A DNA stretch of 64,000 nt from Candidatus Poribacteria bacterium WGA-3G (GTDB lineage Bacteria > Poribacteria > WGA-4E > WGA-3G), in contig ASZN01000021.1 of assembly GCA_000406005.1 (NCBI GenBank), positions 3,309 to 67,308 of the forward strand. The letters are read 5' to 3'. Positions 1,259-62,930 of the stretch are shown in pieces. The position numbers were made by a program, and so were the translations under genes. Every line of letters begins with the position of its first letter. Position 1 is the first letter of the stretch. The notes beneath the pieces are model-generated. The model saw nothing but the letters and a program-made list of their open reading frames with translations, was not told the origin of the DNA and did not search any database.

Positions 1259-1758
1259 CATGTCAAAACAGCACGAAAACACTATCACAACGAAATTGGT
1301 AGACATCCTCAACAGGATGCGGAGCACTTGGACCCTTGAGGAGCAAACACGTCCTTTCAAAAATGAAACCTGTCTGTGTTGTCGGTGTCAGCGAATATCT
1401 CCGGGAACCGATCGACGTAGTTGTTGACATCATCGGTCGCAAACTCAATACTCCCAACGTCGGCATCAAGGATCAGCTCGAACATGTGCCTCCGCTTCAC
1501 AGAGACCGGGTTGTAATCGGCATCGTAAGCGTCGAAGACCCAACAGACCCCATTCGGGTGCATGATGCCTTGATGGAGTGTCGCGTCCGAAAGTCGTCGA
1601 ATATGGAAACAGACACTATTTTCTCTGCGTACCTCAGTCTCTTTTTTTTTAAATCAACCTTGTCATCGGAACCCTCTAACGTAATGTGTACGTCCATCTA
1701 TGTTTTCTCCTATGTCTTTCGGATTCAGTGGTTTATAATAGCAGGTGATCTAAGCACA

Positions 1759-2679
1759 TCAGTGCCGCATGTTTACCAGATAAATCCCAGCTGCGACGAG
1801 AATAGCACCACCGAGTAGGTGTAGCGTTAATTCATCTCCTAAGACTAAATAACTGAATAACACACCTGACAACGGGGTCGCGAAGAAAAGCACGACCAGT
1901 TTACTTGCACTGTATCTTTCCAGTATTGAAGTCCATGCCAAGAAACAGTAACCAGCGATAACACCACCTTGATAAAGAAGGGCAGCGGTACTTGCAAGCG
2001 TCAGCTGCATCGGCTCACCTCGTTCCAATATTAAATTCATTACGGCATAACAGGGGAGACTCAGGCTTAAATACCAGACGAGAAGTCGGTAGGGGTGTAT
2101 CGCTTGGACGAGGAGTTTTGTCACGACAACACGTAACCCCAAGAAACATCCACTGACGAGGACAAGAATATCGCCGATGATACTTGTTTCGCCTTCTCCG
2201 AGATTCGGGGCGACGGTTATAAAAACACCACTGAAGGCGACAATAATGCCCAATGTCTTTGGAACAGAGAGCCGTTCACCGGGAATCCAGAAATGTGCGA
2301 AGAGGGCAGTAAAAAACGGATAGACATTAATAAAAATTGTTGAACGTGATGCTGTCGTGTATTTCGTACCGGTGTTCAAGCAGATGATTTGGAGTATGAA
2401 AATCGCCGTGAGTAGCAGCAATCTTGGCAGTTCGCCACGTTGTAGACCGAGTGAGACACGGCGGTAAAGGGACCAACTCCCGACAACAACGAGGCCAATC
2501 ACAAATCGGAAAAACGCCAATGCCATCGGTGGGAAATCGTCTAAACCGACTTTTATTGACGGTGAATTTCCGCCCCAGAGAAAGGCAAGGAGTAGACTGA
2601 GCGCAATAATTTTCCCGTGCGGCTCCTCACTGATAACATTGGGTTTTGGTGGTGTTTCGGTACGCTCGTTTCTATGCAA
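1759..2679 (-). CDS. EamA/DMT-family (drug/metabolite) transporter
   Basis: 306 aa with about 10 hydrophobic helices arranged as two EamA-like halves. Confidence 0.85.
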   Translation of the reverse strand: MHRNERTETPPKPNVISEEPHGKIIALSLLLAFLWGGNSPSIKVGLDDFPPMALAFFRFVIGLVVVGSWSLYRRVSLGLQRGELPRLLLLTAIFILQIICLNTGTKYTTASRSTIFINVYPFFTALFAHFWIPGERLSVPKTLGIIVAFSGVFITVAPNLGEGETSIIGDILVLVSGCFLGLRVVVTKLLVQAIHPYRLLVWYLSLSLPCYAVMNLILERGEPMQLTLASTAALLYQGGVIAGYCFLAWTSILERYSASKLVVLFFATPLSGVLFSYLVLGDELTLHLLGGAILVAAGIYLVNMRH

Positions 2680-2730
2680 AGGGGATGGTTATCCTCATTG
2701 AAAATTGGCGTTCTTTCGGGGATTGCGCTA

Positions 2731-3534
2731 TCAATCGTAGGCTCCCGGGCGATGGTTCCCCATCAGGCGTTGTTGGCGTTCCGTCGCCTGCTCCAAGATC
2801 GCTGCATCGAACTGAAACCGGTTCAGGTAAGGCGGGAATTTCTGCGTTATCATACGGTTTGCATAATGCACTTGTAATAGGTAGCGCGTCTGATTGCTAC
2901 GGTTTGCGGTGCCACGGTGCCAGACCTCACTTCTGAAGAGCACGACATCACCGGCATTACAGAGGATACTCTGTTCTTTAGCGCCTTTCCATTCCGTCTC
3001 ACCATCTGGTCGCCGTCCGGACAGATGGCTGCCAGGAACGAACTTCGTCGGACCGAGGTCTTCGTAGAGGTCATCCAAGTAATAGTGTGCAGTTGTGATA
3101 AAAATCGGTACTTTAACGCGCGGGTCTTCCAAAATATCCATAGGAAGCGAGATCGGCAGCCAATCTGTGTGCAGTCCTTGGTCAGGACGCCCGGGACCTG
3201 TCACCCACGCCGTCATACCGATGACGTGGCAATCGGCACCGTGAACCGCCTCTGCCAATTCGATGACCGGAGACTTATCTAAGTATCGCAGAAAGACCGG
3301 ATCACGGTTGAAGGCGTTATTGATGTGTTTGTTGAGAAAACCGCTTCCATTTTCTGGGACGCTGTGCCGATCGAAACTCTCTGGGATCGCTGTCAGCTGA
3401 TCCATGGCTGCCCGAAGCTCGGCAAGTTCTGCGCCATCAATAACGTTCGGAAGATAGGCGTACCCATCTTCTTCCATCGCTTTCACTCGGTTTTCGAGGT
3501 CAGGATACGCAACGAGGGGTAAGGCTTGGCTCAT
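2731..3534 (-). CDS. phytanoyl-CoA dioxygenase (PhyH) family Fe(II)/2OG oxygenase
   Basis: GLHTDW ... VWHRGTAN motifs (HxD...H). Start moved to the ATG at 3534 (MSQALPL), which is preceded by GGAGG. Confidence 0.85.
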   Translation of the reverse strand: MSQALPLVAYPDLENRVKAMEEDGYAYLPNVIDGAELAELRAAMDQLTAIPESFDRHSVPENGSGFLNKHINNAFNRDPVFLRYLDKSPVIELAEAVHGADCHVIGMTAWVTGPGRPDQGLHTDWLPISLPMDILEDPRVKVPIFITTAHYYLDDLYEDLGPTKFVPGSHLSGRRPDGETEWKGAKEQSILCNAGDVVLFRSEVWHRGTANRSNQTRYLLQVHYANRMITQKFPPYLNRFQFDAAILEQATERQQRLMGNHRPGAYD

Positions 3535-3703
3535 TATCCTTTTTTCCTCCTTCTTGTGGAAAAAGCCTAAATAGATACTTCCGCAGATGTATTTTACAAC
3601 TTTCAAGGTGTCCTGTCAACTTTTTTCCGAACAAAACGTTAGTTAAGTGCATCCAAAATAGTGTAAAAGTAAAATAACATTTATAAAAAGGGAGAAAATT
3701 CAG

Positions 3704-12131: not shown

Positions 12132-14252
12132 TTGCTAAAAAATATGTTTACGCGATCCAATTGGACTTGGACATTCAGTTTGCGTTTTATCTGTCTGCTT
12201 ATAGGACTTACTTGGACCCCTCACGACGTTTTCGCTATGCGTGGGTTCACAGCAGAAAATGCGATTACGCAAAAACGGTATGAGACTGAATTTAAAGAAC
12301 GTCTCTCAGTCGAAAGGAGTCGCCGTAAGTTACGTTACTTAACGGAAGAACCGCATCTCGCTGGCACCGAAAATAGCCGTAAAGTCGTGGAATACCTGCG
12401 TTCCGAATTTGAGAGCTACGGATTACAGGTTCAGGTCTATGAATACCACGTCTATCTCCCCTATCCGCTTGAGGTGCATGTAGAACTCGTCTCACCGACA
12501 CAACATCTCGCTGTTAGTAAAGAATCGGGTTGGGAATGGGACAAAGATTCTTACGAGACGGATATTGTTCCCGGATACAACGCCTACTCACCCGACGGTG
12601 ATGTGACGGCAGAGCTCGTTTATGTCAACAGAGGGTTGCCCGAAGATTACGAAATCCTCAATGCGCGTGGTGTTTCAGTGGAAGGGAAAATCTGTATTGC
12701 CCGTTATGGTGGCAGTTACCGTGGTGTGAAGGCAAAAGTTGCAGGCGATAACGGTGCCGTCGCGTTGATCCTCTACTCTGATCCGAAAGATGACGGATAT
12801 ATCCGCGGCGATGTCTATCCACGGGGGCCCTGGCGTTCAGCGGATGCGATCCAACGTGGCACGGTGAAATATATATTTCAACACGCCAGTGACCCGCTGA
12901 CCCCAGGCTGGGCGGCTACCAAAGATGCTCAGAGAATACCGATCGCTGAAGCCACCGATTTACCCGAAATTCCTGTCGTTCCGATCGCCTATCGAGATGC
13001 CGAACCCTTTCTCAAAGCACTCGCAGGTTCTAATGTGCCATCGGAGTGGCAAGGCGGTTTACCTTTCACTTATCACATCGGACCGGGACCCGCGAAAGTC
13101 CACATTAAAGTCCGTTGCGAACACAGCACCCGTCCGATTTACAACGTCATCGCAAAGTTAGTAGGGACGGAATACCCTGATGAATGGGTAATCTTAGGGA
13201 ACCATCACGATGCTTGGGTTTACGGCGCAGCGGATCCAGGAAGCGGTACAACCGCTCTCTTAGAGGTCGCCGAATCTTTAGGCGAACTCGCCGAAGAAGG
13301 TGTCCGTCCGAAGCGGACAATCGTTTTCGCGTCGTGGGACGCTGAAGAATTCGGTATCCTCGGTTCCACAGAGTGGGTCGAAGACCTAAAAACGGAACTC
13401 CAAGAGAAAACCGTCGCTTATCTTAATGTAGATATTGCTGCAACGGGTGGACGCTTCTATGTCAGCGCGACGCCGTCGCTACGAGAATTAATCCGAGATG
13501 TAACCGAGAACGTCATTGATCCGAGGACGCTAAAACCGGTTTATGAGAATTGGAAAACGAAACAAGCGCGCGAAATACCACAGATCGGGAACCTCGGAAG
13601 TGGTTCAGACCATTCCCCCTTTGTTGGGCATGCCGGGATTTCAGCTGTCAGTATGGGGTTCGGTGGCCCTTACGGTGTCTACCATGCGATGCAAGATAAC
13701 TTCTACTGGATGGAACATTTCGGTGATCCGACGTTTCAGTATCAAGTGGCGATGTCCAAAATTTGGGGAACGCTTGCTTTACAACTCGCCAATGCCGATA
13801 TTCTACCCTTTGATTATGAAACTTACGCAACAGACCTCATGGTCCCTGTGAAGTTGTTGCAGAATTCGGGTTCCGAAAGCAAGATCGCCAGAGAGGTTAA
13901 AGCGTTAGATGCGTTACTTACCGAGTGGCAGCAGGCTGCATCTCTATTGAACCGGGAACTTACGCGTTATCTTGATTCGCGTAGTTTTTCTGAAATCTCG
14001 GAGATAAACCGACGACTGTATCAATTAGAGCGGAAGTTAATCGATGAGGACGGTTTGCCGTCGCGCCCATGGTTTAAGCATCTTATCTATGCACCCGGGC
14101 TTAATACAGGCTATGCAGCGGTCGTTTTTCCCGGCGTTTTGGACGCTATTGCGCAAGACGACAGTGGACAAGTCCGGGCAGAAGTCGATAGGCTGAGTAC
14201 AGCATTCAAACGCATGATTCAAGAAATTAATGCAATCCGAGAAATGTTGTGA
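12132..14252 (+). CDS. M28-family metallopeptidase with PA and TfR-like dimerisation domains (glutamate carboxypeptidase II-like)
   Basis: Signal peptide. Zinc-ligand context: GNHHDAW, DPGSGTTALLE, SWDAEEFGILGS, HS..D. Confidence 0.9.
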   Translation: MLKNMFTRSNWTWTFSLRFICLLIGLTWTPHDVFAMRGFTAENAITQKRYETEFKERLSVERSRRKLRYLTEEPHLAGTENSRKVVEYLRSEFESYGLQVQVYEYHVYLPYPLEVHVELVSPTQHLAVSKESGWEWDKDSYETDIVPGYNAYSPDGDVTAELVYVNRGLPEDYEILNARGVSVEGKICIARYGGSYRGVKAKVAGDNGAVALILYSDPKDDGYIRGDVYPRGPWRSADAIQRGTVKYIFQHASDPLTPGWAATKDAQRIPIAEATDLPEIPVVPIAYRDAEPFLKALAGSNVPSEWQGGLPFTYHIGPGPAKVHIKVRCEHSTRPIYNVIAKLVGTEYPDEWVILGNHHDAWVYGAADPGSGTTALLEVAESLGELAEEGVRPKRTIVFASWDAEEFGILGSTEWVEDLKTELQEKTVAYLNVDIAATGGRFYVSATPSLRELIRDVTENVIDPRTLKPVYENWKTKQAREIPQIGNLGSGSDHSPFVGHAGISAVSMGFGGPYGVYHAMQDNFYWMEHFGDPTFQYQVAMSKIWGTLALQLANADILPFDYETYATDLMVPVKLLQNSGSESKIAREVKALDALLTEWQQAASLLNRELTRYLDSRSFSEISEINRRLYQLERKLIDEDGLPSRPWFKHLIYAPGLNTGYAAVVFPGVLDAIAQDDSGQVRAEVDRLSTAFKRMIQEINAIREML

Positions 14253-14478
14253 TACGACGAGACGGTGCCCATGACAAGCGGAGTTTGTTACCCGCGTTCT
14301 CCATTGCACTCCATTGCAGGCGGGGTTTGATGAAGTTTGAAAAAATATTTCGGTAATTGACGGGCAATGAATTGCCCTACTACAAACGGGCAGGTTCGTA
14401 GTAGTGCGATTCATCGCACGTTCCGATATTACCGAATTAATAAATCAATTTTCATTAACCCCGCCTGTGTTATCCAAG

Positions 14479-18787: not shown

Positions 18788-19093
18788 ATGAAAGTGATTG
18801 CGGATCTCTGCGTCGTCCCGATGGGGGTCGGTGTGTCGGTCTCAAAATACGTCACGGCGTGCGAACAGGTGCTAAAAGCGGCAGGGTTGGAAACCAAATT
18901 GCACGCCTACGGCACTAATATCGAAGGCGATTGGGACACCGTGTTCGCAGCGATACGGCGGTGCCATGAAGTCGTCCACGAGATGGGGGCACCTCGAATC
19001 ACAACAACACTCAAATTCGGTACCCGGACAGACAGAACACAAACGATGGAAGAAAAGGTTACCAGCGTCGAAAAACAGTTAAAAAACACATAG
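18788..19093 (+). CDS. MTH1187/YkoF-family (UPF0045) small protein
   Basis: 101 aa with VIADLCVVPMGVGVSVSKYV...YGTNIEG pattern. Confidence 0.7.
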   Translation: MKVIADLCVVPMGVGVSVSKYVTACEQVLKAAGLETKLHAYGTNIEGDWDTVFAAIRRCHEVVHEMGAPRITTTLKFGTRTDRTQTMEEKVTSVEKQLKNT

Positions 19094-19231
19094 AACTTAC
19101 GCAGCCCCCTTTGCAGGGTTTTTGCTTGGGTGTTTCTTCAGGGTTTGAAACCCCGACTATGATCGAAACGTCAACCCCCTTGCAGGCGGGGTTTCAAACC
19201 CCGTTTACGATAGAAAAAATGCGTAAACCCT
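19093..19231. repeat. composite REP/MITE-like element (degenerate acttacgca TIR, 'tttgcagggtttttgcttgggtgtttcttcagggtttgaaaccccg' module, and palindrome tgcaggcggggtttcaaaccccg)
   Basis: Shares modules with elements at 45770, 62841 and 26344. Confidence 0.6.
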
Positions 19232-19269
19232 AACAAAAAGCAATTATATAAAGAGGTTACACACTTCAA

Positions 19270-20571
19270 ATGTACAAAAAACTTTTACGCATAGGATTGG
19301 CATGTCTGATAAGTTTTCTTATCGTGTCGAACACCAGCCATGCCCAAGAACGTATTACCGGTCCGTGGCTCTGGATGATCGCTCTCACCGAACTCAACGA
19401 AGGCGGACAGGCTTCTACTGACATCGATTCTCTTGATGAAGCCAGTAAAGGCAGAACCACCGAAGAACACGTCGCAGAAAACGGTGCAAACGAAGGCGAT
19501 GAAGTCAGCGGTTATAGATGGACCCCCGGTGAACTCCCAGCAGACGGCAACATCAATACCTTGCTCGTTGATATTGGAATGACAGACATTGCCGATTTTA
19601 ACGATGTCACATCTTATGCCATTATCATCATCGAATCCGACGAAGAGCAACGTAATGTTAAAATGGGTGTCAGCAGCGATGACTCTATTAAAGTCTGGCT
19701 CAACGGTGAAGTCGTCCATAAAAACGCGGTCAATCGCGGACGCGGCGGTGCCAATGAATTTCAAGATGAATTCCAAGTTAACCTCAAAGAAGGTGCGAAC
19801 CTTTTAATGGTCAAAGTCAGTGAGCGCGGCGGCGGATGGGGAATGAACGTCGGCATCGATGCCGATTTCGACCACAGTCTGAACTTCGATGATTACGAAC
19901 ACGGCGAAGTAGACGCTAAGGGTGATCCGATTCCCGTACAAGAAACGGCATGGGGTGCAAACAGACGCATTACCGGTCCCTGGCTCTGGATGATCGCACC
20001 CACCAAAGCCAATCAAGGCGGACAGGCTTCCACCGAGGTCGATTCGCTCGACGAAGCCAGTAATGGTAAAGTCACCGAAGAGGAAGTCGCAAAAAATGGC
20101 GCGAACGAAGGTGATGAAGTCGGCGATTATGAATGGACAATCGGCGAACTCCCAGCAGACGGCAACATCAACACAACAGTTGTATCGATAGGTATGACAA
20201 ACGTCGCCGATTTTAACGATGTTACGTCCTACGCGCTGATTACGCTTAAAACCACCAAAGCACAGCGCGATGTTATCATGGGCGTTAACAGTGATGACTC
20301 TATCAAAGTCTGGCTCAACGGTGAAGTCGTCCATACAAACGCCGTAAATCGCGGACGCGGCAACGCAAACGCTTTCCAAGATACCTTCGAGGTTGACCTC
20401 GAACGCGGTAATAACATCTTAATGGTTAAAGTCAGTGAACGTGGCGGCGGATGGGGCATGTACGTCGGCATTGATGCAGATTTCGCACTCAGTAGTACGC
20501 CAGGACGCTTGTCCGTTGAACCTACAGGGAAATTTATAACGAAGTGGGGTGAACTAAAACGCACCCGCTAA
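19270..20571 (+). CDS. secreted protein, paralog 1 of a tandem family (two ~200-aa repeat units; possible lectin/PA14-like beta-sandwich)
   Basis: Signal peptide. Unit motif GPWLWMIAPT..NQGGQASTDIDSLDEAS...DDSIKVWLNGEVVH.NAVNRGRG...VKVSERGGGWGMYVGIDAD occurs twice. Confidence 0.8.
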   Translation: MYKKLLRIGLACLISFLIVSNTSHAQERITGPWLWMIALTELNEGGQASTDIDSLDEASKGRTTEEHVAENGANEGDEVSGYRWTPGELPADGNINTLLVDIGMTDIADFNDVTSYAIIIIESDEEQRNVKMGVSSDDSIKVWLNGEVVHKNAVNRGRGGANEFQDEFQVNLKEGANLLMVKVSERGGGWGMNVGIDADFDHSLNFDDYEHGEVDAKGDPIPVQETAWGANRRITGPWLWMIAPTKANQGGQASTEVDSLDEASNGKVTEEEVAKNGANEGDEVGDYEWTIGELPADGNINTTVVSIGMTNVADFNDVTSYALITLKTTKAQRDVIMGVNSDDSIKVWLNGEVVHTNAVNRGRGNANAFQDTFEVDLERGNNILMVKVSERGGGWGMYVGIDADFALSSTPGRLSVEPTGKFITKWGELKRTR

Positions 20572-20749
20572 GGTAGGCACTTTCAACCAAACAATTCAAA
20601 AATTCAATTTAATCGAAAAATATATTTGACTTTTTTGGTAACCTGTGCTAACCTATTACGTTGGTTGAATAGAAGGGACATAATGGCATAATCATTTTGT
20701 CCTGCTCTCTCCAAAACGATAGTAAACAGAGACTATTTCTAAATTTCTC

Positions 20750-20901
20750 AGGACTTACGCATGCTGCTCTTTTGTAGCACGATGCACTTCGCATCTGGGC
20801 GAGTACGCCGCAAAACTTCATAGTTTGTGTCACCAGAACGCTGTGTTTTCCGAAAATTCTCATCTAACAGAACGGACTGCAGTCAAAATTGCGTAAGTCC
20901 T
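20750..20901. mobile_element. MITE-like element copy A (TIR AGGACTTACGCA / TGCGTAAGTCCT) with a ~40-bp internal insertion; flanked by a duplicated AAATTTCT
   Basis: Terminal inverted repeats are perfect over 12 bp. Flanks read ..ctAAATTTCTc[element]AAATTTCTaac. Confidence 0.7.
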
Positions 20902-20942
20902 AAATTTCTAACAAGCAACAAGAGGAGATTTCACGTAAATAA

Positions 20943-21644
20943 ATGTACAAAAAATTATGGCTCATAGGATTGACATGTCTAATCGGTCTTTCGTTTATAA
21001 CGCATATCGCTGATGCCGAAACGCCCATCGCAGGACCGTGGCTCTGGATGATCGCACCCACTGAAGCCAACCAAGGTGGACAAGCCTCGACCGATATTGA
21101 TTCGCTTGACGAGGAAAGTAAAGGCAAAGTCACAGAAGAAGATGTCGCAAAAAACGGTGCCAGAGAAGGCGATGAAGTCGGCGACTATGAATGGACACCC
21201 GGCGAACTGCCAGCAGACGGCAACATTAACACCATGCTCGTCTCAATCAAGATGACAAAAGTCGCCGATTTTAACGATGTTACCTCTTACGCCCTTCTGA
21301 TACTCGAATCCAGCAAAACACAGTCCAAGGTGACAATGGGTACCAGCAGCGATGACTCTATCAAAGTCTGGCTTAATGGTGAAGAGGTTCATAAGAAGGC
21401 TGTGAACCGTGGTCGCGGCGGCACACCCGCAAATATCAATGGCTACCAAGATAGGTTCGAGGTGGACATCAAAAAAGGTGCCAACCTGTTGTTGGTCAAA
21501 GTCAGTGAGCGCGGCGGCGGATGGGGACAGTACGTCGGTATCGATGCCGATGTCGAACCCCACATAGATTTTGACGGGTTTCAACCCGTTGAACCCGCTG
21601 GAAAATTAGCGACACAATGGGCAGAAATTAAGAACGCGCATTAG
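20943..21644 (+). CDS. secreted protein, paralog 2 (single repeat unit)
   Basis: Same unit motif as paralog 1. A 40-mer at 21041 is identical to 40-mers at 22001 and 22561. Confidence 0.8.
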   Translation: MYKKLWLIGLTCLIGLSFITHIADAETPIAGPWLWMIAPTEANQGGQASTDIDSLDEESKGKVTEEDVAKNGAREGDEVGDYEWTPGELPADGNINTMLVSIKMTKVADFNDVTSYALLILESSKTQSKVTMGTSSDDSIKVWLNGEEVHKKAVNRGRGGTPANINGYQDRFEVDIKKGANLLLVKVSERGGGWGQYVGIDADVEPHIDFDGFQPVEPAGKLATQWAEIKNAH

Positions 21645-21905
21645 TGCTGTCGTTTTCAATCCGAACATTTTCGTTACCTGTTTTCGGTGCTATTCGATAG
21701 AGATATTTCACGTTGACTGGGCAACGAAAATTAAATTGTTCCAACCACCACTTTTTAATCTTGATTTAAATTGTGGTTATTTGTTAAACTAATATCGAAT
21801 AGTTGTTCATCCTTAATTTAAAAAGGCGTCAGAAACCATAACGCAATAGATGAGCACTGTTAAAGTTAAATGTTATTTTCTCAAAAAAATTAAACGGAGG
21901 ATTTT

Positions 21906-23153
21906 ATGAACAGGAAACTATTTGTAGGGTTAACGTGCCTTATGGCGATCTTCTTCATGACGCACATCGCTGATGCACAAGAACCAATTGCAGGCCCCTG
22001 GCTCTGGATGATCGCACCCACTGAAGCCAACCAAGGTGGAGAGGCTTCTACCGATATCGATTCTCTCTCAGTCGCCAGTGGTGGTGATGTCACTGAAGAT
22101 ATGGTCGCAGCAAACGGCGCAACCGAAGGCGACGAAGTCGGCGATTACGCTTGGACAATCGGCACGCTCCCAGCAGACGGAAACACCAATACCATGCTCG
22201 TCGAACTCGGTGTCACAGAAAATGCCGATTTCAACGACGTGAGTTCTTATGGACTTATCTACCTTGTATCCGCGACTGCTCAGTCCGGCGTAACGCTCGG
22301 CGCCAGCAGTGATGACTCTGTCAAAATCTGGCTCAACGGCGAAGTCGTTCACACAAACGCTGTCAACCGTGGACGCGGCGGCGCACCCGCTGATATAGAT
22401 GGCTACCAAGATAAAATTGAAGTAAACCTCGTAGAAGGGGCTAATCTGTTGCTCGTGAAGGTGAGCGAACGCGGTGGTGGATGGGGACAATACGTCGGTA
22501 TCGATGCCGATGTCACGACCTCACCTACGCCACCTATCTTTCACATTACAGGCGAATATGTCTGGATGATCGCACCCACTGAAGCCAACCAAGGTGGACA
22601 GGCTTCTACCGATATCGATTCCCTCGCAGTCGCCAGTAACGACGATGTCACCGAAGAAGACATCGCAATGAACGGCGCAACCGAAGGCGACGAAGTCGGC
22701 GATTACGCTTGGACGGTCAGTACCCTCCCAGCAGACGGAAACATCAACACCATGCTCGTCGAACTCGGCGTCACAGAAAACGCTGACTTCAACGACGTTA
22801 CCTCTTACGCCGTCATCACACTCGTAGCCGATGAAGATATGGAAGGCGTGATGTTCGGGGTCAGCAGTGACGATTCCGTCAAAGTCTGGCTCAACGGTGA
22901 AGTCGTTCACACAAACGCTGTAAACCGCGGACGCGGCAACGCCCAATCCTTCCAAGATACGTTCGCAGCTAACCTTGTCCAAGGCGACAACATCCTGATG
23001 ATAAAAGTCAGTGAACGTGGCGGCGGGTGGGGAATGTATGCCGGTACCAGTGCTGATGTCGAGGCTGTCTATAAGCCAGCTGTCGAATTAGGCACATCCG
23101 TTGAAGCCGCTGGCAAACTCCCAACAACATGGGGAAGCTTGAAAATTAAGTAA
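21906..23153 (+). CDS. secreted protein, paralog 3 (two repeat units)
   Basis: Signal peptide plus two units with the conserved motifs. Confidence 0.8.
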   Translation: MNRKLFVGLTCLMAIFFMTHIADAQEPIAGPWLWMIAPTEANQGGEASTDIDSLSVASGGDVTEDMVAANGATEGDEVGDYAWTIGTLPADGNTNTMLVELGVTENADFNDVSSYGLIYLVSATAQSGVTLGASSDDSVKIWLNGEVVHTNAVNRGRGGAPADIDGYQDKIEVNLVEGANLLLVKVSERGGGWGQYVGIDADVTTSPTPPIFHITGEYVWMIAPTEANQGGQASTDIDSLAVASNDDVTEEDIAMNGATEGDEVGDYAWTVSTLPADGNINTMLVELGVTENADFNDVTSYAVITLVADEDMEGVMFGVSSDDSVKVWLNGEVVHTNAVNRGRGNAQSFQDTFAANLVQGDNILMIKVSERGGGWGMYAGTSADVEAVYKPAVELGTSVEAAGKLPTTWGSLKIK

Positions 23154-25303: not shown

Positions 25304-26335
25304 ATGGCAGATACTATTAAAGGTGCCGTTCTCGGATATGGTGCCGCATTTAACATGGGCAGAGCCCACGCAAATATGATGCAGAACACCGACGGCATAG
25401 AATGCGTCGCTATTTGCGACATAGACCCTGAACGAACCGATGCCGCAAAAAAAGATTTCCCCGGCATCAGCACCTATAATTCAGTTGAAGAGCTCAACGC
25501 CGACGACGGTGTCGATCTCGTCGCAAATGTTCTACCGCATAGTTTGCACTGTGGACCCTCAGTGGCAAGCCTCAAGGCCGGCAAGCACGTCGTCGTTGAA
25601 AAACCGATGTGCGTCACGATCGCCGAAGCCACAGAAATGATTACAACCGCTAAAGAAAACGACGTTATGTTGTCCGTTCATCACAACCGACGCTGGGATG
25701 CGGATTTCTGGACGCTCCGAGAACTCGTCCAATCCGGCATCATCGGTAAAGTCTTTAGCGTTGAAATGTGGGGCGGCGGCTACGGAAGACCCAACCCCGA
25801 CTGGTGGCGAAGCGTCAAAGCCATCTCCGGGGGCCAATTCTACGACTGGGGCGCACACTACCTCGATTGGCTACTCAATGTTCTCGAAGCACCAATGATT
25901 AACGTCACCGGCTTCTATCAGCCGAATCTCGTTTGGGACGATATTACCAACGAAGATCACGTCCAAGCGATTATCCGATTTGCAGGTGGCGAAGTCGTCG
26001 CAGACGGCGCAGCCGCAAACATCCAGATGTCTAACATCGCCAAAATCGGTGGAGAGCGATGGAAACTGCTCGGATCACACGGCGCGATTACCTCCGAAGG
26101 CGGCGGGTTCAAAGTACTCTCCGAAGTCGAAGGACAACCAAAAGAGCAGACGGTCGGCCATCACGGCAGACCCGGACCGAGTTATTATCAGAATATCGTC
26201 GCCCATTTAAACGACGGCACGCCACTACTCGTAACACCGGAATCCGCTCGCCGGGTCATTGCCATCATGGATTTAGCAGAAAAATCCGCTAAAACACATC
26301 AGGCTGAAACGGTACCTTACGAGTTTGAAGCATAA
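25304..26335 (+). CDS. Gfo/Idh/MocA-family oxidoreductase
   Basis: N-terminal Rossmann region plus EKP catalytic motif (VVVEKPM). Confidence 0.85.
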   Translation: MADTIKGAVLGYGAAFNMGRAHANMMQNTDGIECVAICDIDPERTDAAKKDFPGISTYNSVEELNADDGVDLVANVLPHSLHCGPSVASLKAGKHVVVEKPMCVTIAEATEMITTAKENDVMLSVHHNRRWDADFWTLRELVQSGIIGKVFSVEMWGGGYGRPNPDWWRSVKAISGGQFYDWGAHYLDWLLNVLEAPMINVTGFYQPNLVWDDITNEDHVQAIIRFAGGEVVADGAAANIQMSNIAKIGGERWKLLGSHGAITSEGGGFKVLSEVEGQPKEQTVGHHGRPGPSYYQNIVAHLNDGTPLLVTPESARRVIAIMDLAEKSAKTHQAETVPYEFEA

Positions 26336-26343
26336 CAAAACTT

Positions 26344-26392
26344 ACACAAATCCCACTGCAGGACGGGGTTTCAAACCCCGCCTGCAATATCA
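26344..26392. repeat. REP-like palindrome TGCAGGaCGGGGTTTCAAACCCCGCCTGCA
   Basis: Near-perfect palindrome, found again at 14310 and 19190. Confidence 0.6.
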
Positions 26393-28527: not shown

Positions 28528-28557
28528 TTTGCCGAATTTTCGTATTGAAACTTGGAT

Positions 28558-28752
28558 AGGACTTACGCATGCTGCTCTTTTGTAGCACAAACTTCTTAGT
28601 TTGTGTCACCAGAACCCTGTGTTTTCTTGGATAGGACTTACGCATGCTGCTCTTTTGTAGCACAAACTTCTTAGTTTGTGTCACCAGAACCCTGTGTTTT
28701 CCGAAAATTCTCATCTAACAAAACGGGCTGCAGTCAAAATTGCGTAAGTCCT
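28558..28752. mobile_element. MITE-like element: a 5' partial copy (~71 bp plus a duplicated TTGGAT flank) in tandem with a full copy (28633-28752)
   Basis: The string 'ttggataggacttacgcatgctgctcttttgtagcacaaacttcttagtttgtgtcaccagaaccctgtgttttc' occurs twice in tandem. The full copy ends in TGCGTAAGTCCT. Confidence 0.7.
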
Positions 28753-28967
28753 ATTGGAAAAGGGTGGAAATTAAAAAGGTGTCTATCGGTTTTTGGGAAG
28801 TCGCATTCCTCATCATAATCCTTTTGGGAATCGTCATTGCGTCGCGTCTCGTCGAAAGACTTCGGACGAAACGCATTTGTCCAGAGTGTGGCTTAGCAAT
28901 TCATACGCACACATCAACTTGTCCGTCATGCAAGCACACTTTCCAAAGAAAAAATAAAGGAGGCTAA
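28740..28967 (+). CDS. small membrane protein with a C-terminal zinc ribbon (CPECG...CPSC); hypothetical
   Basis: The ATG lies inside the MITE terminus, with an alternative GTG at about 28773. The stop region supplies the copZ SD, so the two may be translationally coupled. Confidence 0.35.
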   Translation: MRKSYWKRVEIKKVSIGFWEVAFLIIILLGIVIASRLVERLRTKRICPECGLAIHTHTSTCPSCKHTFQRKNKGG

Positions 28968-40767: not shown

Positions 40768-43185
40768 GTGCGCCATTGTGCTAATGTGCCCAATTGAGAT
40801 ATAAATCTCTATACTAATTAGGAAATGGTATAAAGCCAACTGCTTTAGGGTAAAGAGAAATCTAAACCTGAACATAGCATAGCAGTAAAGGATAGAATGG
40901 ATGAACTAACCTAATCCAAAGCTATTCAAGGCTTGAGAGATATGGTAAGAGTTATACTACCCGAAATCCAATACGCAGGAGTAAGTGTGGCTAAAAGGGC
41001 AAGGTTAGTGATGCCCCCACTAAGAGATGACATTAGATTTTAAGTCTGTCTAATGCCTTCCTAAATCTCTTAGACACTGTGAAATATACACAGGCAAGCG
41101 TATGAGTGGATTACCTAAGTCTCTCTATCGTTGACACATTGGAACTATGGGATAGTCTAAAGGGTGAGAACCCCATGGCTACGGAGTTTCCATAGTAGTC
41201 GCTCTCAACTGAGAATAAGACTATGCGAAGGTATAGTGAAGATGAAGGGAAACAGGTAAGTTAATCCAAGTAGATATAAGAGTAATGCGAAATGCATATT
41301 ATCTCGAATAAATACCTTGGAATAGTGAGTGATAGAGGAAAAAGAAATCTTCCGCTAAAGCGCGTATACTCTAATATGTGCGATAGAGAATTATTTCTAA
41401 TTGCCTATCATCAAATGGCGAAAAAGAAAGGTGCCATGACAAAGGGGTCTAACTCCGAAAACATTGATGAAATGTCGATTACAAAAATAGATAAAATCAT
41501 CAATGAACTTAAAACCGGAAAATATAGACCCAAACCCAGTCGTAGGGTCTATGTATCTAAACCAGACGGAAAACAAAGATGTTTAGGAATACCATGCTGG
41601 ACAGACAAACTCGTCCAACGTGTAGTAACGATGATACTGGGAGAATACTATGAACCCCAGTTCTCAGATCACTCGCATGGATTTAGACCCAATAGAGGTT
41701 GTCATACTGCTTTGGAAGAAATAGCCATAGCGTGGAAAGGGACAAAGTGGTTTATAGAAGGAGACATAAAGGGCTGCTTCGACAACATAAACCATGAATA
41801 CCTACTGAAGATCCTAAGAAAAAGGATTTTAGATGAAAGACTCATTAAACTCATTCGTATATGGCTAAAAGCCGGGTATATCGAGAATTGGACATACCAC
41901 AACACATACTCAGGCACGCCACAAGGCGGCGTTATGAGTCCTCTACTGGCTAACATATACCTCTCTGAATTAGATGAAAAATTAGAAGAATTATCTGAAA
42001 TCTGGAAAGTAGGAAAATCAAGAGGAACAAACCCCGAATACGCTAAACTATCGCGAAAAATCAACAAAGCAAAGAAGGAAAATAACGCCCAAGAAGCAAA
42101 AGAAGCACGGAAAGAACTTAACATCGCTAAAAGCAAAGGGCTTACTTGGTCGAATCCGCAAGATGACAATTTCCGCAGACTAAAATTTGTCAGATACGCA
42201 GACGATTTTATTATCGGATTTATCGGTAGCAAAGCAGAAGCCAAAGACATCAAAAAGGAAGTCAAAACTTTCCTCAAAGATGAAATTGGACTCACGCTAT
42301 CGGACGATAAAACGAAAATAACGAACGCGACACACGAAAAAGCACGCTTTCTTAACTACGAAATCTTTACCGAGAAATCAACAACAAGACCAAGAATAAA
42401 TGGAACAATCCGCTTGGACTTGCCTCACGACGTGTTCATAAAATGGAAAAGGAAGTATACTAAGAAAGGGAAAGCCTATCACAGCCCCTACTACATGGAA
42501 CTATCCGATTATATGATAATCAGGGCATATAATGCAGAGTTTCAAGGTCTCTATCAGTATTACATAATGGCTCAAAACGTATCGAGCAAATTATATCAAT
42601 TGAAGAGCTATGTGATGACATCAGCAGCTAAAACCTTGGCATCCAAACACAAACTCTCTGTAAACAAAATATGCGAAAAATATAAGAGGACCGGCAGCAA
42701 CGGCGTAAAAGCACTCATAGTAGAGGTCAATAGAAAGGATAAACCGCCCTTAGTCGCCACATTAGGGGACTTCCAAATAAAATGGGTAAAGTTTCCGAGT
42801 AAGAAAGATAAGCCATACAACGATGAAATTAGAGGTATAAAAGTTCTTGATGATAAAAAAAGTGTCCGGTCTGACCTCCTAACAAGGCTTATGAATAACA
42901 CTTGTGAAATATGTGGAAATACGGATGAAATAGAAGTACACCACATCAGAAAAATGAGTGATATTGATAAGAACAAAGAAGGATGGCAAAAACTCATGAG
43001 TAGCATGAGACGAAAGACACTCATCGTCTGCAAGGACTGTCATCATAAAATCCATATAGGAAAATATGATGGAAAATCACTATAAAAACTTACTGGAGAG
43101 CTACGTGCATTGAAAAGTGCAAGCGTGGTTCGGAGGGGGACTATTGAAAACACAGATGATGCTGTGCGTTGGTAGTCTACCCTAC
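40768..43185 (+). mobile_element. group II intron (~2.4 kb) with an intron-encoded protein in domain IV
   Basis: 5' GTGCG. Domain V is GAGAGCTACGTGCATT-GAAA-AGTGCAAGCGTGGTTC (AGC triad, GAAA loop) at about 43098-43131. Domain VI follows and the 3' end is ...CCTAC. The ORF at 41292-43085 encodes RT, maturase (X) and HNH domains. Confidence 0.85.
41292..43085 (+). CDS. group II intron reverse transcriptase/maturase with C-terminal HNH endonuclease domain
   Basis: RT motifs include FVRYADDFIIGF (YADD). An X/maturase region is present. HNH/zinc-finger-like sequence: CEICGNTDEIEVHHI...CKDCHHKIH. Confidence 0.9.
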   Translation: MHIISNKYLGIVSDRGKRNLPLKRVYSNMCDRELFLIAYHQMAKKKGAMTKGSNSENIDEMSITKIDKIINELKTGKYRPKPSRRVYVSKPDGKQRCLGIPCWTDKLVQRVVTMILGEYYEPQFSDHSHGFRPNRGCHTALEEIAIAWKGTKWFIEGDIKGCFDNINHEYLLKILRKRILDERLIKLIRIWLKAGYIENWTYHNTYSGTPQGGVMSPLLANIYLSELDEKLEELSEIWKVGKSRGTNPEYAKLSRKINKAKKENNAQEAKEARKELNIAKSKGLTWSNPQDDNFRRLKFVRYADDFIIGFIGSKAEAKDIKKEVKTFLKDEIGLTLSDDKTKITNATHEKARFLNYEIFTEKSTTRPRINGTIRLDLPHDVFIKWKRKYTKKGKAYHSPYYMELSDYMIIRAYNAEFQGLYQYYIMAQNVSSKLYQLKSYVMTSAAKTLASKHKLSVNKICEKYKRTGSNGVKALIVEVNRKDKPPLVATLGDFQIKWVKFPSKKDKPYNDEIRGIKVLDDKKSVRSDLLTRLMNNTCEICGNTDEIEVHHIRKMSDIDKNKEGWQKLMSSMRRKTLIVCKDCHHKIHIGKYDGKSL

Positions 43186-43356: not shown

Positions 43357-43430
43357 CGCAGGGTAGAGCAGCCAGGTAGCTCGTCGGGCTCATAACCCGG
43401 AGGACGGGGGTTCAAATCCCCCCCCCTGCA
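43357..43430 (+). tRNA. initiator tRNA-fMet (CAU)
   Basis: CGCAGGGTAGAGCAGCCAGGTAGCTCGTCGGGCTCATAACCCGGAGG...: C1:A72 mismatch, three G:C pairs in the anticodon stem, anticodon CAT. Closely matches E. coli tRNA-fMet as recalled. Confidence 0.85.
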
Positions 43431-43525
43431 ATCTTCTCAACCCCTAAATGTTCTTTGATACATCAACGATAACATACAAAAAACACACTTAACCTCATCG
43501 TTTCCGATAATCCATCTCAACCTAT

Positions 43526-43599
43526 GCCGGTGTAGCTCAGTGGTTTAGAGCACACGACTCATAATCGTGCTGTCCGGAGTTCGACTCTCCGCACCGGCA
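43526..43599 (+). tRNA. tRNA with CAU anticodon (elongator Met or tRNA-Ile2, the lysidine substrate)
   Basis: GCCGGTG-TA-GCTC-AGTGGTTTA-GAGC-A-CACGA-CTCATAA-TCGTG-CTGTC-CGGAG-TTCGACT-CTCCG-CACCGGC-A. Confidence 0.85.
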
Positions 43600-43653
43600 T
43601 CGTTCTACCGTTTAAGCGGTGGGATACAATTTGCCGTTAAAATTGGCGACCTC

Positions 43654-45637: not shown

Positions 45638-45769
45638 GCAATTTCAATGGACGATAAAGACTATCCAGCACCACAATATTTGGTGCAAAGCACTTTTTAT
45701 ATTTTTTTCTTGACAATAATTTGAATTATTTGATATAATATATTAATCCTTTAATACATAATTATTAAT

Positions 45770-45922
45770 AGGACCTACGCACACCCCATGCAGGGTTTTT
45801 GCAATGTAATACAAGGAATGGATTTCGTCTATTCCCAGACTAAATCCGGTGTTTCTTCAGGGTTTGTAACCCCGCCTGATGCCCGTATTATGTAGAATCT
45901 CATGAAAAAATGCGTAAGTCCT
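45770..45922. mobile_element. diverged MITE-like element (AGGACCTACGCAC...TGCGTAAGTCCT) carrying the gggtttgtaaccccgcctg palindrome module
   Basis: The terminal inverted repeats differ from the main family at 2 positions. The interior is shared with 19093 and 62841. Confidence 0.6.
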
Positions 45923-45998
45923 AATTAAGTTGAATTGACACGCCTTTGCTAAGACAGCAATTTAAGTTACAATAAACATCACCAAGAGGGGGTTTATA

Positions 45999-46781
45999 AT
46001 GCGTAAACTCGTTTCGTTTGCCCTATGTGGTGTTTTGATCACGGCATTCATCTTTTTCACACAAGCACAAATGTCAGACAAAGCACAACTGGGGCGCGAA
46101 CTTTTTCACGATCCAACTTTCAAAGGAACAATCAAACCCGGTAAAGTAAAAGGATTCGCTACTGGGCTTACCTGCGCAAACTGCCACGCAGATTTTGACG
46201 AGACAACACATCCGGATGGAGTCATTCGTGCCGGACACAGTATGGTTGGTGTCCCACACCGCGGACAGGCGAAAGGCGGAATGATCTCAGCCGACATCTT
46301 TGAACGCGCAGCAGGCGGCGGCGGTTTCTGCTACCAGCACTTCCTACAGCGAATACCAGGTCCCGAAGTCGATCCAACCGCAATCCCTGAAGAACACGCT
46401 GAAGCACTTATGGCGTATTTCAAAGCGATCTCCGGTGATAACAAGGGTCCCCAATTTGAAATAGCAATGTTAGATGACAATGCCAAAAAGGCAGCCGGTG
46501 AGAAACTCGCTGCTATGAGCGGCGAGGCAGAAAACGGATGGCAACTCTTCGGGCGCGCATGCGTCGTCTGCCACCCGTCACCCTATAAAGCCGGAATCGG
46601 ACCCCAACTCATCCGATCAAGACCACCTCGGAATATCGACGCAACACTGGAACGTTGGGCAACGAAAATTCGAGGCGGCGGTACGCTCATGCCTTTCTAT
46701 GCACCTGATATCCTCAGCGACCAACAAGTCGCAGATATTATCGCATTCCTGCGCCAAGAATTAGAAAACGCCGGAAATTAA
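45999..46781 (+). CDS. secreted diheme c-type cytochrome
   Basis: Signal peptide. Two CxxCH motifs: CANCH and CVVCH. Confidence 0.8.
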   Translation: MRKLVSFALCGVLITAFIFFTQAQMSDKAQLGRELFHDPTFKGTIKPGKVKGFATGLTCANCHADFDETTHPDGVIRAGHSMVGVPHRGQAKGGMISADIFERAAGGGGFCYQHFLQRIPGPEVDPTAIPEEHAEALMAYFKAISGDNKGPQFEIAMLDDNAKKAAGEKLAAMSGEAENGWQLFGRACVVCHPSPYKAGIGPQLIRSRPPRNIDATLERWATKIRGGGTLMPFYAPDILSDQQVADIIAFLRQELENAGN

Positions 46782-47921: not shown

Positions 47922-48722
47922 TTGTTGATGAAGAAAAGGTCTATTCATACTTTTACGTTTATAACTGTTCTGCTTATAGAGGCACTCTCTGGAATAGTAT
48001 TTGCCGCTGGTTTCCAGCAACACATGATTCAGAAAGGTGAAACGCTGTCCGAAATCGCACAGAAGTACAAAGTACCCGTCAAATCAATTATCCAAGCAAA
48101 CAGTATTAAGTCAGCACACCGTATACAGACTGGGAAAATGCTACGCATACCGAGCGAAACCTTCGCCCTAAAAGAAATCATGTATCAGGTCAAACCCGGC
48201 GATACTTTGATCGGTATAGCGAACCACCATAACGTCGACTGGAGAGTCCTACAAAGACTCAACAGAATTTCTTCGCCTCGCAGTCTACAGATCGGCACAG
48301 AAATTCGGATTCCGTACGACGTTGTCTCCGGGTTCAGTGATCCGCTCCGAATTCCGTTAGTCCTTACTTCAAAATACGGCTATCGCCCCCATCCTGTTAC
48401 GGGGCGTTGGCGGATGCATGATGGGATAGACTTACGTGCCGCTGTCGGTACACGCGTCTACGCTTCCAAAGGTGGTAGAATTATCTTCGCAGGACGCAAA
48501 GGCGGCTACGGGAAACTCGTCGGAATAGAACACGAAGACAACTTTACCACATGGTATGGGCATTTGTCGCGCATCAGGGTAAAAGTCGGGCAAATTGTAA
48601 ACCAAGGAAAAGTCATCGGCTTGTCGGGCAACACCGGAATATCGACCGGGCCCCACTTACACTTTGAAATTAGGTATAAAGGCAGAAGTGAAAAACCAAC
48701 TCAGTACATTACCATACCGTAA
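47922..48722 (+). CDS. LysM-domain M23-family peptidoglycan endopeptidase
   Basis: Signal peptide, two LysM repeats, and an M23 domain with HDGIDL...HLHFEI. Confidence 0.9.
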   Translation: MLMKKRSIHTFTFITVLLIEALSGIVFAAGFQQHMIQKGETLSEIAQKYKVPVKSIIQANSIKSAHRIQTGKMLRIPSETFALKEIMYQVKPGDTLIGIANHHNVDWRVLQRLNRISSPRSLQIGTEIRIPYDVVSGFSDPLRIPLVLTSKYGYRPHPVTGRWRMHDGIDLRAAVGTRVYASKGGRIIFAGRKGGYGKLVGIEHEDNFTTWYGHLSRIRVKVGQIVNQGKVIGLSGNTGISTGPHLHFEIRYKGRSEKPTQYITIP

Positions 48723-62058: not shown

Positions 62059-62157
62059 GTTTTAAATTTTCCTTGCGGTTAAATCAAACGGGTTTGTATT
62101 TTAGAGTCCTTTTCTGTGTATCCGCCTTCCACTTCGTTTCAGGCGACGGTTTTGATT

Positions 62158-62277
62158 AGGACTTACGCATGCTGCTCTTTTGTAGCACAAACTTCTTAGT
62201 TTGTGTCACCAGAACGCTGTGTTTTCCGAAAATTCTCATCTAACAGAACGGGCTGCAGTCAAAATTGCGTAAGTCCT
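62158..62277. mobile_element. MITE-like element copy C (full length, 120 bp)
   Basis: Differs by 1-3 nt from copy B2 and has perfect 12-bp terminal inverted repeats. Confidence 0.75.
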
Positions 62278-62323
62278 ATTGATGTTATACCATTTCTGAA
62301 AAGATGAATGTCGTACCGTACAC

Positions 62324-62840: not shown

Positions 62841-62930
62841 CCCTTCCTTCATACCACCCTTTGCAGGGTTTTTGCTTGGGTGTTTCTTCAAGGGTTTGTA
62901 ACCCCGCCATCCTACTTCAGACTGAGATTA
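62841..62930. repeat. REP-like module 'ctttgcagggtttttgcttgggtgtttcttcaagggtttgtaaccccgcc'
   Basis: Near-identical to 19107-19160. Confidence 0.55.

Follow-up and report, generated by a model that had tools for sequence, protein, structure and literature searches.

The window analysed here, a 64,000-nt stretch of contig ASZN01000021.1 from Candidatus Poribacteria bacterium WGA-3G, contains a series of short, dispersed repeats with near-identical inverted ends. These repeats raise two questions: what kind of element they are, and which enzyme is responsible for their movement. A sequence-only reading had described three of them as a non-autonomous, MITE-like transposable element family. Our analysis points the same way, and we put a probability of roughly 0.9 on the reading that the elements are MITEs and that a DDE transposase of the IS701 family (ISPlag1 type) most likely moves them. 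They are an ordinary kind of element, belonging to a transposon class that is already known and to which the Poribacterial families are added here. The elements and associated features of the window are as follows.

20749 to 20902, + strand: MITE copy A, family 1 (12-mer bounds 20750-20901, 152 nt); includes the 13th terminal bases C...A and carries a nested 32-nt module
20742 to 20748, no strand: left target-site duplication (TSD) of copy A, AATTTCT, atypical at 7 bp; right counterpart at 20903-20909
20781 to 20812, + strand: 32-nt module nested in copy A, GATGCACTTCGCATCTGGGCGAGTACGCCGCA; two mini-hairpins; a separate dispersed repeat that lies outside the MITE consensus
28632 to 28753, + strand: MITE copy B, family 1 (12-mer bounds 28633-28752, 120 nt); 5-bp TSD TTGGA at 28627-28631 and 28754-28758
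28552 to 28626 (75 bp), + strand: partial tandem duplicate near copy B, made of TTGGA and the left 70 nt of B; 100% identity to 28627-28701
62157 to 62278, + strand: MITE copy C, family 1 (12-mer bounds 62158-62277, 120 nt); 5-bp TSD TTGAT at 62152-62156 and 62279-62283
19091 to 19232 (core 19092-19231), + strand: element with degenerate ends, TAGAACTTACGCA...TGCGTAAACCCTA; two family-2 GGGGTTTCAAACCCC-type hairpins inside
45769 to 45923 (core 45770-45922), + strand: family-2-type MITE with ends AGGACCTACGCA...TGCGTAAGTCCT; 5-bp TSD ATTAA at 45764-45768 and 45924-45928
3554 to 3555, no strand: empty site; the orthologous intergenic position in MAG VYCT01000283.1 holds a family-1 MITE

Copies A, B and C are near-identical, lie where the sequence-only reading had placed them and have perfect 12-nt inverted termini, AGGACTTACGCA...TGCGTAAGTCCT. 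Copies B and C share 97% identity, and alignment showed that A differs from both by a single block, which had been estimated at about 40 bp and in fact measures 32 nt. The original inventory of three copies was sound for A, B and C, but it missed the 75-bp partial copy beside B and two further elements. Ten occurrences of the AGGACTTACGCA 12-mer, at most one mismatch being allowed, were counted in the window, where shuffles predict 0.23, and the remaining matches lead to the elements 19092-19231 and 45770-45922, which share the ends and have a different interior, a GCAGGCGGGGTTTCAAACCCCGCCTGC-type hairpin. In element 19092, four of the five positions of the flanking repeat match, and the first hairpin is split by a second small module, the 23-nt GTTTTTGCTTGGGTGTTTCTTCA block (19118-19140). 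The interior hairpin of element 45770 contains the same 23-nt module (45795-45802 and 45848-45859), itself broken by a further insert of 45 nt.

At 120-154 nt, and crossed only by mechanically called ORFs, the window elements are non-coding, as had been proposed. It had also been suggested that an element end supplies the ATG of a small ORF at 28740; this does not hold, as the codon in copy B is TTG (AAAATTGCGTAAG) and ORF 28740-28967 is only a mechanical call. The 75-bp partial copy upstream of B is present in an independent assembly (L122) and so is not an assembly artefact: site B went through a local 75-bp tandem duplication.

The termini proved to be slightly longer than first described. 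Among 95 non-redundant elements from the window and elsewhere, a pyrimidine (T, 75; C, 19) adjoins the 12-mer on the outside at the left end, and a purine (A, 79; G, 16) at the right end. This bias defines a conserved end of 13 nt, Y-AGGACTTACGCA...TGCGTAAGTCCT-R, rather than the 12-bp repeat originally reported, even though those 12 nt are perfect in copies A, B and C. An exact 5-bp direct repeat abuts the 13-bp termini in 52 of the 95 elements, compared with approximately 1.0 expected in a flank-shuffled control that used the right flanks of other elements. Longer flanking repeats are rarer (6 bp in 7/95, with 0.12 expected; 7 bp in 3/95), and an intact duplication is missing in 29/95. For copy A, a duplicated AAATTTCT had been noted on both sides; the direct repeat is real, but its boundaries move once the 13-nt end is used, leaving a 7-bp core, AATTTCT. 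MITEs of other phyla that have these ends also carry 5-bp duplications.

To look for empty sites, the two flanks of each element were joined and compared with all available sequence, which recovered an exact filled/empty pair. Locus L108 is filled, GGTATA-TTTGT-[TAGGAC...GTCCTA]-TTTGT-TTTAG, whilst the orthologous loci L046 and L040, in different Poribacteria genomes, are empty and read GGTATATTTGTTTTAG, so that TTTGT is duplicated exactly. A second case involves the window itself: a family-1 MITE fills L028:237-356 (Poribacteria MAG VYCT01000283.1) opposite the empty site of the window near 3555, and positions 1747-3552 of the window share 80% identity with a Poribacteria MAG. The possibility that only the copies of the window exist, with no polymorphism or flank duplication elsewhere, is thus contradicted by many further copies and by site polymorphism. 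The filled/empty differences were seen between species only. Proteins encoded beside elements are identical to proteins on metagenome contigs, presumably from sponges, and within species, exact look-ups of the proteins neighbouring A, B and C led to sites that were all filled, or to contigs that break off within the repeat; site C is occupied in three other assemblies as well.

Another reading of the element boundaries was considered and rejected. A TA target of the IS630-like kind, which the sequence TAGGAC...GTCCTA could suggest, does not fit the empty site, where the junction is without TA and five further bases are duplicated. The L108/L046 pair also argues against the view that the flanking repeats are a preferred, pre-existing target motif. 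Taken together, the target-site duplications, the filled/empty pair, the dispersed copies and the existence of an insertion sequence (IS) with the same ends support the non-autonomous transposable element that was first proposed.

The parent transposase had been reported to be absent from the window, and tblastn with an IS701-family transposase found no relative within the 64 kb. Neither was there a recurrent protein beside the right-end motif at the 118 loci described below, where the recurrent ORFs are ordinary paralogues. An IS sharing the terminal repeat, the search for which the sequence-only reading had proposed, was reached by a full-text literature search with the 12-mer. ISPlag1 of Planktothrix agardhii, an IS701-group element 1306 bp in length, encodes a 337-aa transposase (Christiansen et al. 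2008, PMC2464740); its terminal repeats are CAGGACTTACGCAAGCACGCTATATATAG, the end begins CAGGACTTACGCA, and the signature motif is CAIRWKIEEFHREIK (PMC2464740). Elements of the ISPlag1 type carry ends identical to those of the MITEs.

Several full-length relatives extend this match. Locus L027, from an Oxalobacteraceae MAG, holds a 1099-bp element with the same 12-mers at both ends and a 337-aa protein with CALRWKIEQFHQEIK, which matches NCBIfam NF049921 (transpos_IS701_2) at 379.5 bits (cutoff 250, E=1.4e-113) as well as Pfam DDE_Tnp_1 and DDE_5. Relatives of the transposase were found by tblastn on 418 plasmids; the three plasmid copies that were inspected measure 1120 bp (Paraburkholderia), 1156 bp (A. 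baumannii) and 1087 bp (Chondrinema, Cytophagales), the 12-bp ends are perfect in each, and two of them have a 5-bp duplication. In Poribacteria, locus L034 (chromosome OZ252032.1) shows an end followed by a transposase gene that is truncated by the edge of the locus, and encodes the same transposase as L128. The L128, L129 and L130 copies are complete (1081, 1090 and 1089 bp), with perfect ends and transposases of 332-346 aa. A protein search with the L034 fragment returned 1578 relatives at E<=1e-20, some of them from outside Poribacteria, and P0001 heads a cluster of 29 sequences. Two more metagenomic copies, L181 and L182, measure 1062 and 1072 bp, one of them with the duplication TTTCT.

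Flanking 5-bp duplications are present at L119, L121 and L182. An intact duplication is missing in 5 of the 9 complete full-length ISs whose flanks were read, in one more, L120, the 5-bp repeat is one base out of register, and the Poribacterial full-length copies (L128-L130) are without clean duplications. Alignment of seven transposases showed D77, D163 and E270 to be invariant, as are R266, W267, H273, K277 and the motif RW.IEQ.H...K; C or S occupies the Y position of the YREK motif. The stop codon of the transposase lies, in several full-length copies, within the right end (GCG TAA GTCCT), which may explain part of the conservation of this end. On these sequence comparisons, the parent is most likely a 1.06-1.3-kb IS701-family IS of the ISPlag1 type (NF049921) with identical ends.

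Two other candidates were set aside. A putative long element with a duplication at L007:1299-4452 is a coincidence; the CCAAA duplication there belongs to a normal MITE, and the gene between the two ends encodes a sigma-factor fusion. The 425-aa DDE transposases of L037 and L111 belong to a different IS, which has ACTAAAGTTTGGACAAT ends.

In the mechanism that we favour, a full-length IS copy elsewhere in the genome would make the transposase, which would bind both ends of a MITE, excise or copy it and insert it into AT-rich intergenic DNA. A staggered target cut, usually of 5 bp, would then be repaired to give the flanking duplication. The identity of the ends suggests that an IS701-type transposase acts in trans on the MITEs, presumably by recognition of the 12-13-nt end, and by analogy the reaction chemistry would be that of IS4/IS701-type DDE enzymes. 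On this view, the genome from which the window derives would carry an active copy of the transposase.

The MITEs and the ISs have only their termini (12-13 nt) in common, and the MITEs are not simple deletion derivatives of the ISs. Their interiors are lineage-specific hairpins; that of family 1 is a GTAG-preceded stem of 7 bp with covarying pairs. The occurrence of one 13-bp end on ISs of 1.06-1.3 kb and on unrelated short MITEs suggests that a very short end is sufficient. This end has been kept from Cyanobacteria to Proteobacteria, Bacteroidota, Chloroflexota and Poribacteria, and both autonomous ISs and many unrelated MITE families use it. New MITE families may arise repeatedly in different phyla, by the placing of a local hairpin or REP between two 13-bp IS701-type ends.

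A scan for the right end, AAAAWTGCGTAAGTCCTA, in one genome per species (596 Gb) returned at least 118 loci; as approximately 35 chance matches are expected in 596 Gb, singletons mean little. Most of the matches listed are in Candidatus Poribacteria MAGs, and in about two-thirds of these Poribacteria-dominated listed matches an inverted partner is located 67-245 nt upstream of the right end. In total, 49 copies of family 1 were aligned, from many Poribacteria genomes, and among the matches listed the MITE families of the window were seen only in Poribacteria. Outside Poribacteria the same ends bound elements of 89-135 nt with unrelated interiors, giving at least six phyla or classes in all. 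These lineages include a Cytophagales MAG with many copies, Moraxella sp. TY6, M. osloensis and Psychrobacter, the cyanobacteria Drouetiella, Scytonema, Sphaerospermopsis, Geitlerinema, Leptolyngbyaceae and Dapis, and MAGs of an Anaerolineae, a Caenarcanales and another Bacteroidota.

All 95 elements are intergenic; none lies inside a long ORF, which answers the question, raised at the outset, of whether insertions sit consistently between genes. Their orientation relative to co-directional neighbouring genes shows no bias (27 sense, 25 antisense). Within the window, copy A ends 41 nt before an ATG at 20943, and ORF 18788-19093 stops at a TAG that is contributed by the first three bases of element 19092. 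A promoter with a 12/12 match to the consensus (45710-45739) precedes element 45770 by 30 nt, so some MITE copies are probably transcribed; an ORF begins 77 nt past this element, at 45999. No terminator-like or promoter-like signals above shuffled expectation were detected inside family 1, and a search of viral contigs, in view of possible carriage by phage, gave no match. Our literature search found no paper linking Poribacteria and MITEs. Repeats of this class break up short-read assemblies of sponge symbionts, and two of the contigs in our set, L122 and L127, end inside elements; for annotation, the repeats can now be named and tied to a specific transposase family.

Of the alternative explanations, the one that survives best holds that the copies are immobile fossils, and that gene conversion or a local duplication, and not recent transposition, made the copies of the window alike. 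Wherever another assembly encodes identical neighbouring proteins, sites B and C are occupied; site B has undergone a local tandem duplication, and clean duplications are missing from the Poribacterial full-length ISs. In addition, conversion is suggested by the identity of the partial and full copies at B, both of which depart from the partial copy in L122. Set against these points, copies B and C are 97% identical despite a separation of 33 kb and both retain intact 5-bp duplications, intact transposase ORFs are widespread in Poribacteria (the cluster and relatives given above), and filled and empty sites differ between species. We therefore regard immobility as unlikely.

It could also be argued that family 1 consists of REP/REPIN-type repeats moved by a RAYT (Y1 HUH) transposase, and that the IS701-like ends are incidental. 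The interior of family 1, a GTAG followed by a hairpin with a 7-bp stem, is built like a GTAG-tagged REP (PMC3733652). Genuine GTAG REPs abound in these genomes too, and in the window they are found at approximately 14360-14420. However, transposition of the REP/RAYT and IS200/IS605 types yields no target duplication, whereas the duplications observed here abut the 13-bp termini and not the hairpin, and families without the GTAG hairpin have the same ends and the same duplication. Movement of family 1 by a RAYT enzyme is highly improbable.

A last possibility is that the elements are structured-RNA genes or cis-elements, closed by a conserved helix of the inverted termini, and that copies have spread by duplication. 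Pair counts were made on the 49 aligned family-1 copies for a structure that we specified. The internal hairpin CACAAAC/GTTTGTG contains two covarying pairs (AU to GC, CG or UA), in which both partners are changed in 23 cells, compared with 4.5 in shuffles, and half of the copies show a U.G at one position; together with the promoter just upstream of element 45770, this is the evidence for an RNA. In the terminal 12-pair helix, by contrast, no pair is changed on both sides and the rare departures break the pair, so the ends are conserved as sequence, as would be expected of a protein-binding site. The covariation of the family-1 hairpin shows only that a palindrome is maintained, which is REP-like in form (compare PMC3733652). 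The sequence-only reading had named covariation-supported ends as the finding that would speak for an RNA gene; the terminal repeats instead proved to be invariant. In Rfam 15 the copies matched nothing at the gathering threshold; neither did the stretch 19000-21000 at E<=5, nor six loci that contain the 32-nt module. Since the ends do not covary and Rfam has no match, since there is no bias in orientation towards neighbouring genes, and since target duplications, an exact empty site and the use of the same termini around unrelated interiors and transposase genes all speak against it, an RNA gene is very unlikely.

Within the MITEs, our analysis revealed a second layer of repeats. The 32-nt module of copy A has the consensus RATGC-nnnTC-GCATY-TG-GGCG-AGTA-CGCC-GCA, and at least 16 occurrences of it were counted in the first megabase of loci. 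A metagenome scan with its 3' half added 50 loci, giving 58 distinct instances in total. The module is always embedded in another repeat. Three hairpin subtypes of family-1 MITEs carry it at the same position, without exception as the G...C variant; it also lies in the hairpin loop of a family-2 MITE (L059), within CCGGTGCGGTT...AACCGCACC hairpins and beside TCGCGGATT repeats. Its commonest site is exactly the 5' edge of the loop of a GTAG-type REP hairpin, GCGCAAT/module/GA-ATTGCGC-TACTACGAAC; REP hairpins of the same type without the module have a bare loop, GA or AA. The outermost pair of its first mini-hairpin covaries, with A-T in 41 instances and G-C in 12. Nesting extends to the modules themselves, as the 23-nt GTTTTTGCTTGGGTGTTTCTTCA block is inserted into the 32-nt module in L040 and L051; in the window the block is present in the family-2-type elements at 19118-19140 and 62868-62890, and in split form within 45795-45859.

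The 32-nt module shows no orientation bias. No orthologous site lacking it was found in 1.27 Mb, and its mobility is accordingly judged from paralogous comparisons of repeats with and without the module. We also considered whether the module might be a ribozyme, of the hammerhead or another type; inspection by eye did not find the core CUGAUGA...GAAA, and the six loci compared with Rfam gave no match. A tentative and somewhat doubtful suggestion is that the 32-nt and 23-nt segments are ultra-small mobile modules outside cyanobacteria, a poribacterial counterpart of the small dispersed repeats (SDR), inserted in one orientation into each other and into the tops of hairpins such as REP loops, MITE hairpins and other palindromes, with no known transposase signature.

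How do these elements compare with known systems? The ISPlag1-type ISs have the same terminal sequence as the window MITEs: their AGGACTTACGCA/TGCGTAAGTCCT ends are perfect, and those ISs with intact flanks show a 5-bp duplication. The window MITEs differ from ISPlag1 in having no transposase, in sharing only 12-13 nt with it and in their unrelated hairpin interiors. The 197-bp remnants of ISPlag1 with terminal repeats in Planktothrix are the same kind of derivative. The ISPlag1 repeat was reported as 29 bp, of which only the first 13 are conserved across the group. ISAba11-type elements, at approximately 1.1 kb, have 5-bp duplications. Classical members of the IS701 family, on the other hand, are 1400-1550 bp in length, with duplications that are always 4 bp (De Palmenaer et al. 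2008, PMC2266710); their end consensus is ---YACT-Y--YR, and their DDE transposase is without the Y of the YREK motif (PMC2266710). The present ISs resemble them in having a YREK-like motif without the Y (C/S..RW.IE..H...K), in matching DDE_Tnp_1 and DDE_5 and in having ACT at positions 5-7 of the end, but differ in size (1062-1306 bp) and in their mostly 5-bp duplications, which identifies them as a distinct, smaller subgroup.

The window MITEs have much in common with other bacterial MITEs. Like Nezha (Anabaena/Nostoc), MITEAba12 and Correia, they are approximately 100-170 bp long, non-coding and intergenic, with terminal inverted repeats and target duplications, and they share with bacterial MITEs an AT-rich target preference, a foldable interior and termini common to an IS acting in trans (PMC3184786). 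Nezha has ISNpu3 as its partner, and the direct repeat of its template copy, CATTATCTAC, measures 10 bp, against 5 bp in the present elements; on this difference in length, which sets Nezha apart by its description rather than by its sequence, it was rejected as the same family.

The relationship to REPs is closer for the hosts of the 32-nt module than for the MITEs. Many of these hosts are GTAG-type REP hairpins in inverted pairs (GTTCGTAGTA-GGGCAAT-TC-ATTGCCC), like the GTAG-tagged REPs and REPINs of the literature (Di Nocera 2013; Bertels and Rainey 2011). REP dimers are nested in longer palindromes in Anabaena variabilis (Di Nocera et al.), and a REP dimer is similarly nested in a longer palindrome at 14316-14470 of the window; the nesting of the 32-nt module recalls this arrangement. 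The MITEs, in contrast, have IS701-type ends and duplications, which are absent from REPs; although family 1 contains a GTAG and a hairpin, it is the 13-bp ends and the duplication that delimit the mobilised unit.

Lastly, it is the modules and not the MITEs that resemble SDRs. SDRs were reportedly described in heterocystous cyanobacteria by Elhai et al. in 2008, in Genome Res 18:1484. They are said to be tens of nucleotides long, dispersed, located inside other repeats or hairpins and mutually nested, with no known mobilising enzyme, and in each of these respects the 32-nt and 23-nt modules are alike; the sequences and the phylum differ. The SDR work of Elhai (2008) is cited in PMC5861425 and PMC3116915, and among the HIP1-rich cyanobacterial genomes examined, SDR-like repeats were found in none outside Nostocaceae (PMC5861425). 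The nested modules of Poribacteria bear on the old question of how repeats too small to encode anything are able to spread.

We identified a 32-nt two-hairpin module, RATGCnnnTCGCATYTGGGCGAGTACGCCGCA, that is dispersed through the Poribacteria (58 distinct instances), and every instance lies inside some other hairpin or repeat: the loops of GTAG-type hairpin repeats (REPs), the short non-coding MITEs of families 1 and 2, or CCGGTGCGGTT/AACCGCACC hairpins. Relative to REP hosts, the orientation of the module is constant. An Rfam search with six loci carrying the module returned no match, and no orthologous site empty of it was found in the 1.27 Mb searched. A 23-nt T/G-rich module, GTTTTTGCTTGGGTGTTTCTTCA, stands in place of the CG in GG-CG-GG-type stems, and is found both in family-2 hairpins and in the interior of the 32-nt module. 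There are also short tandem runs of related 13-nt units, GTTTTTGCTTGGG and GTTTTTGATAGGG.

Positions of the two modules in the window and in the compared loci (L-numbers)
20781-20812: 32-nt module, window (insert of MITE copy A)
L001:4277, L037:2174, L059:1908, L017:3075, L023:75, L031:100, L031:2259: 32-nt module, elsewhere
L131-L180: 32-nt module, further loci
19118-19140; 62868-62890: 23-nt module, window
45795-45802 + 45848-45859: 23-nt module, window, split copy
L040:780, L051:7082, L084:6497, L123:1634, L123:1705: 23-nt module, elsewhere

Because a 45-nt insert interrupts the 23-nt module in the family-2-type element 45770-45922, nesting there is three levels deep. The spacer 3′ of ORF 12132-14252 holds a nested composite (14316-14470), in which a family-2 hairpin, GCAGGCGGGGTT...ACCCCGCCTG, surrounds an element whose inverted ends are long (TGATGAAGTTTGAAAAAATATTTCGGTAAT...); inside that element, in turn, two GTAG-type REPs, GGGCAATGAATTGCCC-TACTACAAAC and GTTCGTAGTA-GTGCGATTCATCGCAC, form an inverted pair. 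The long-ended element is also found within MITEs of three compared loci (L012, L086 and L099).

Some of these hairpins lack the 13-bp ends of the MITEs. A solitary GGGGTTTCAAACCCCG(CCTGCA) hairpin at 26363-26387, directly after the stop of ORF 25304-26335, has no such ends and is 96% complementary to the hairpin at 19180-19204, within the family-2-type element 19092-19231; MITE interiors therefore occur as independent REP-like hairpins, too. Similarly without 13-bp ends is a unit at 62857-62908, between ORFs 62324-62833 and 62928-63986, which consists of CCCTTTGCAGG, the 23-nt module and GGGTTTGTAACCCCGCC. The window has one such unit; on contig L123, where the neighbouring protein encoded is identical, the unit occurs twice in tandem at a spacing of 71 nt (L123:1634-1760), a copy-number polymorphism.

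In several full-length insertion sequences, the right terminal repeat contains the end of the transposase ORF (..GCG TAA GTCCT; L027:1695-1712 in an Oxalobacteraceae MAG, and L128:2526-2540 and L130:2532-2546 in Poribacteria), and part of the end is therefore also under coding constraint. A second, different poribacterial insertion sequence encodes a 425-aa DDE_Tnp_1/DDE_5 transposase between inverted ends ACTAAAGTTTGGACAAT (L037:700-2130; L111:6174-7451); in L037, it adjoins a family-1-like fragment and a REP bearing the 32-nt module.

Elsewhere in the window, an Rfam group II intron match (56 bits; 43096-43185) lies directly 3′ of ORF 41292-43085 and is followed by two tRNA-Met genes with CAT anticodons (43358-43601), and ORF 48664-50334 contains about 6-8 copies of a 12-nt tandem repeat, CCCAAAACAGAG (49744-49839), which would encode a PKTE-type peptide repeat. 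A repeat search of the window revealed an array of paralogous genes or domains at 19270-23153 (300-nt repeats, 60-86% identical, spaced 546 to 1070 nt), and MITE copy A sits in a spacer of this array. MITE 45770-45922 is preceded, at a distance of 30 nt, by a sigma-70 promoter that matches the consensus in full (12/12; TTGACA, 18 nt, TG-TATAAT; 45710-45739), and so is probably within the 5′ untranslated region of ORF 45999-46781. ORF 18788-19093 takes its TAG stop codon (19091-19093; T-AG AACTTACGCA) from the first three bases of element 19092-19231, and its C-terminus may have been altered by the insertion.
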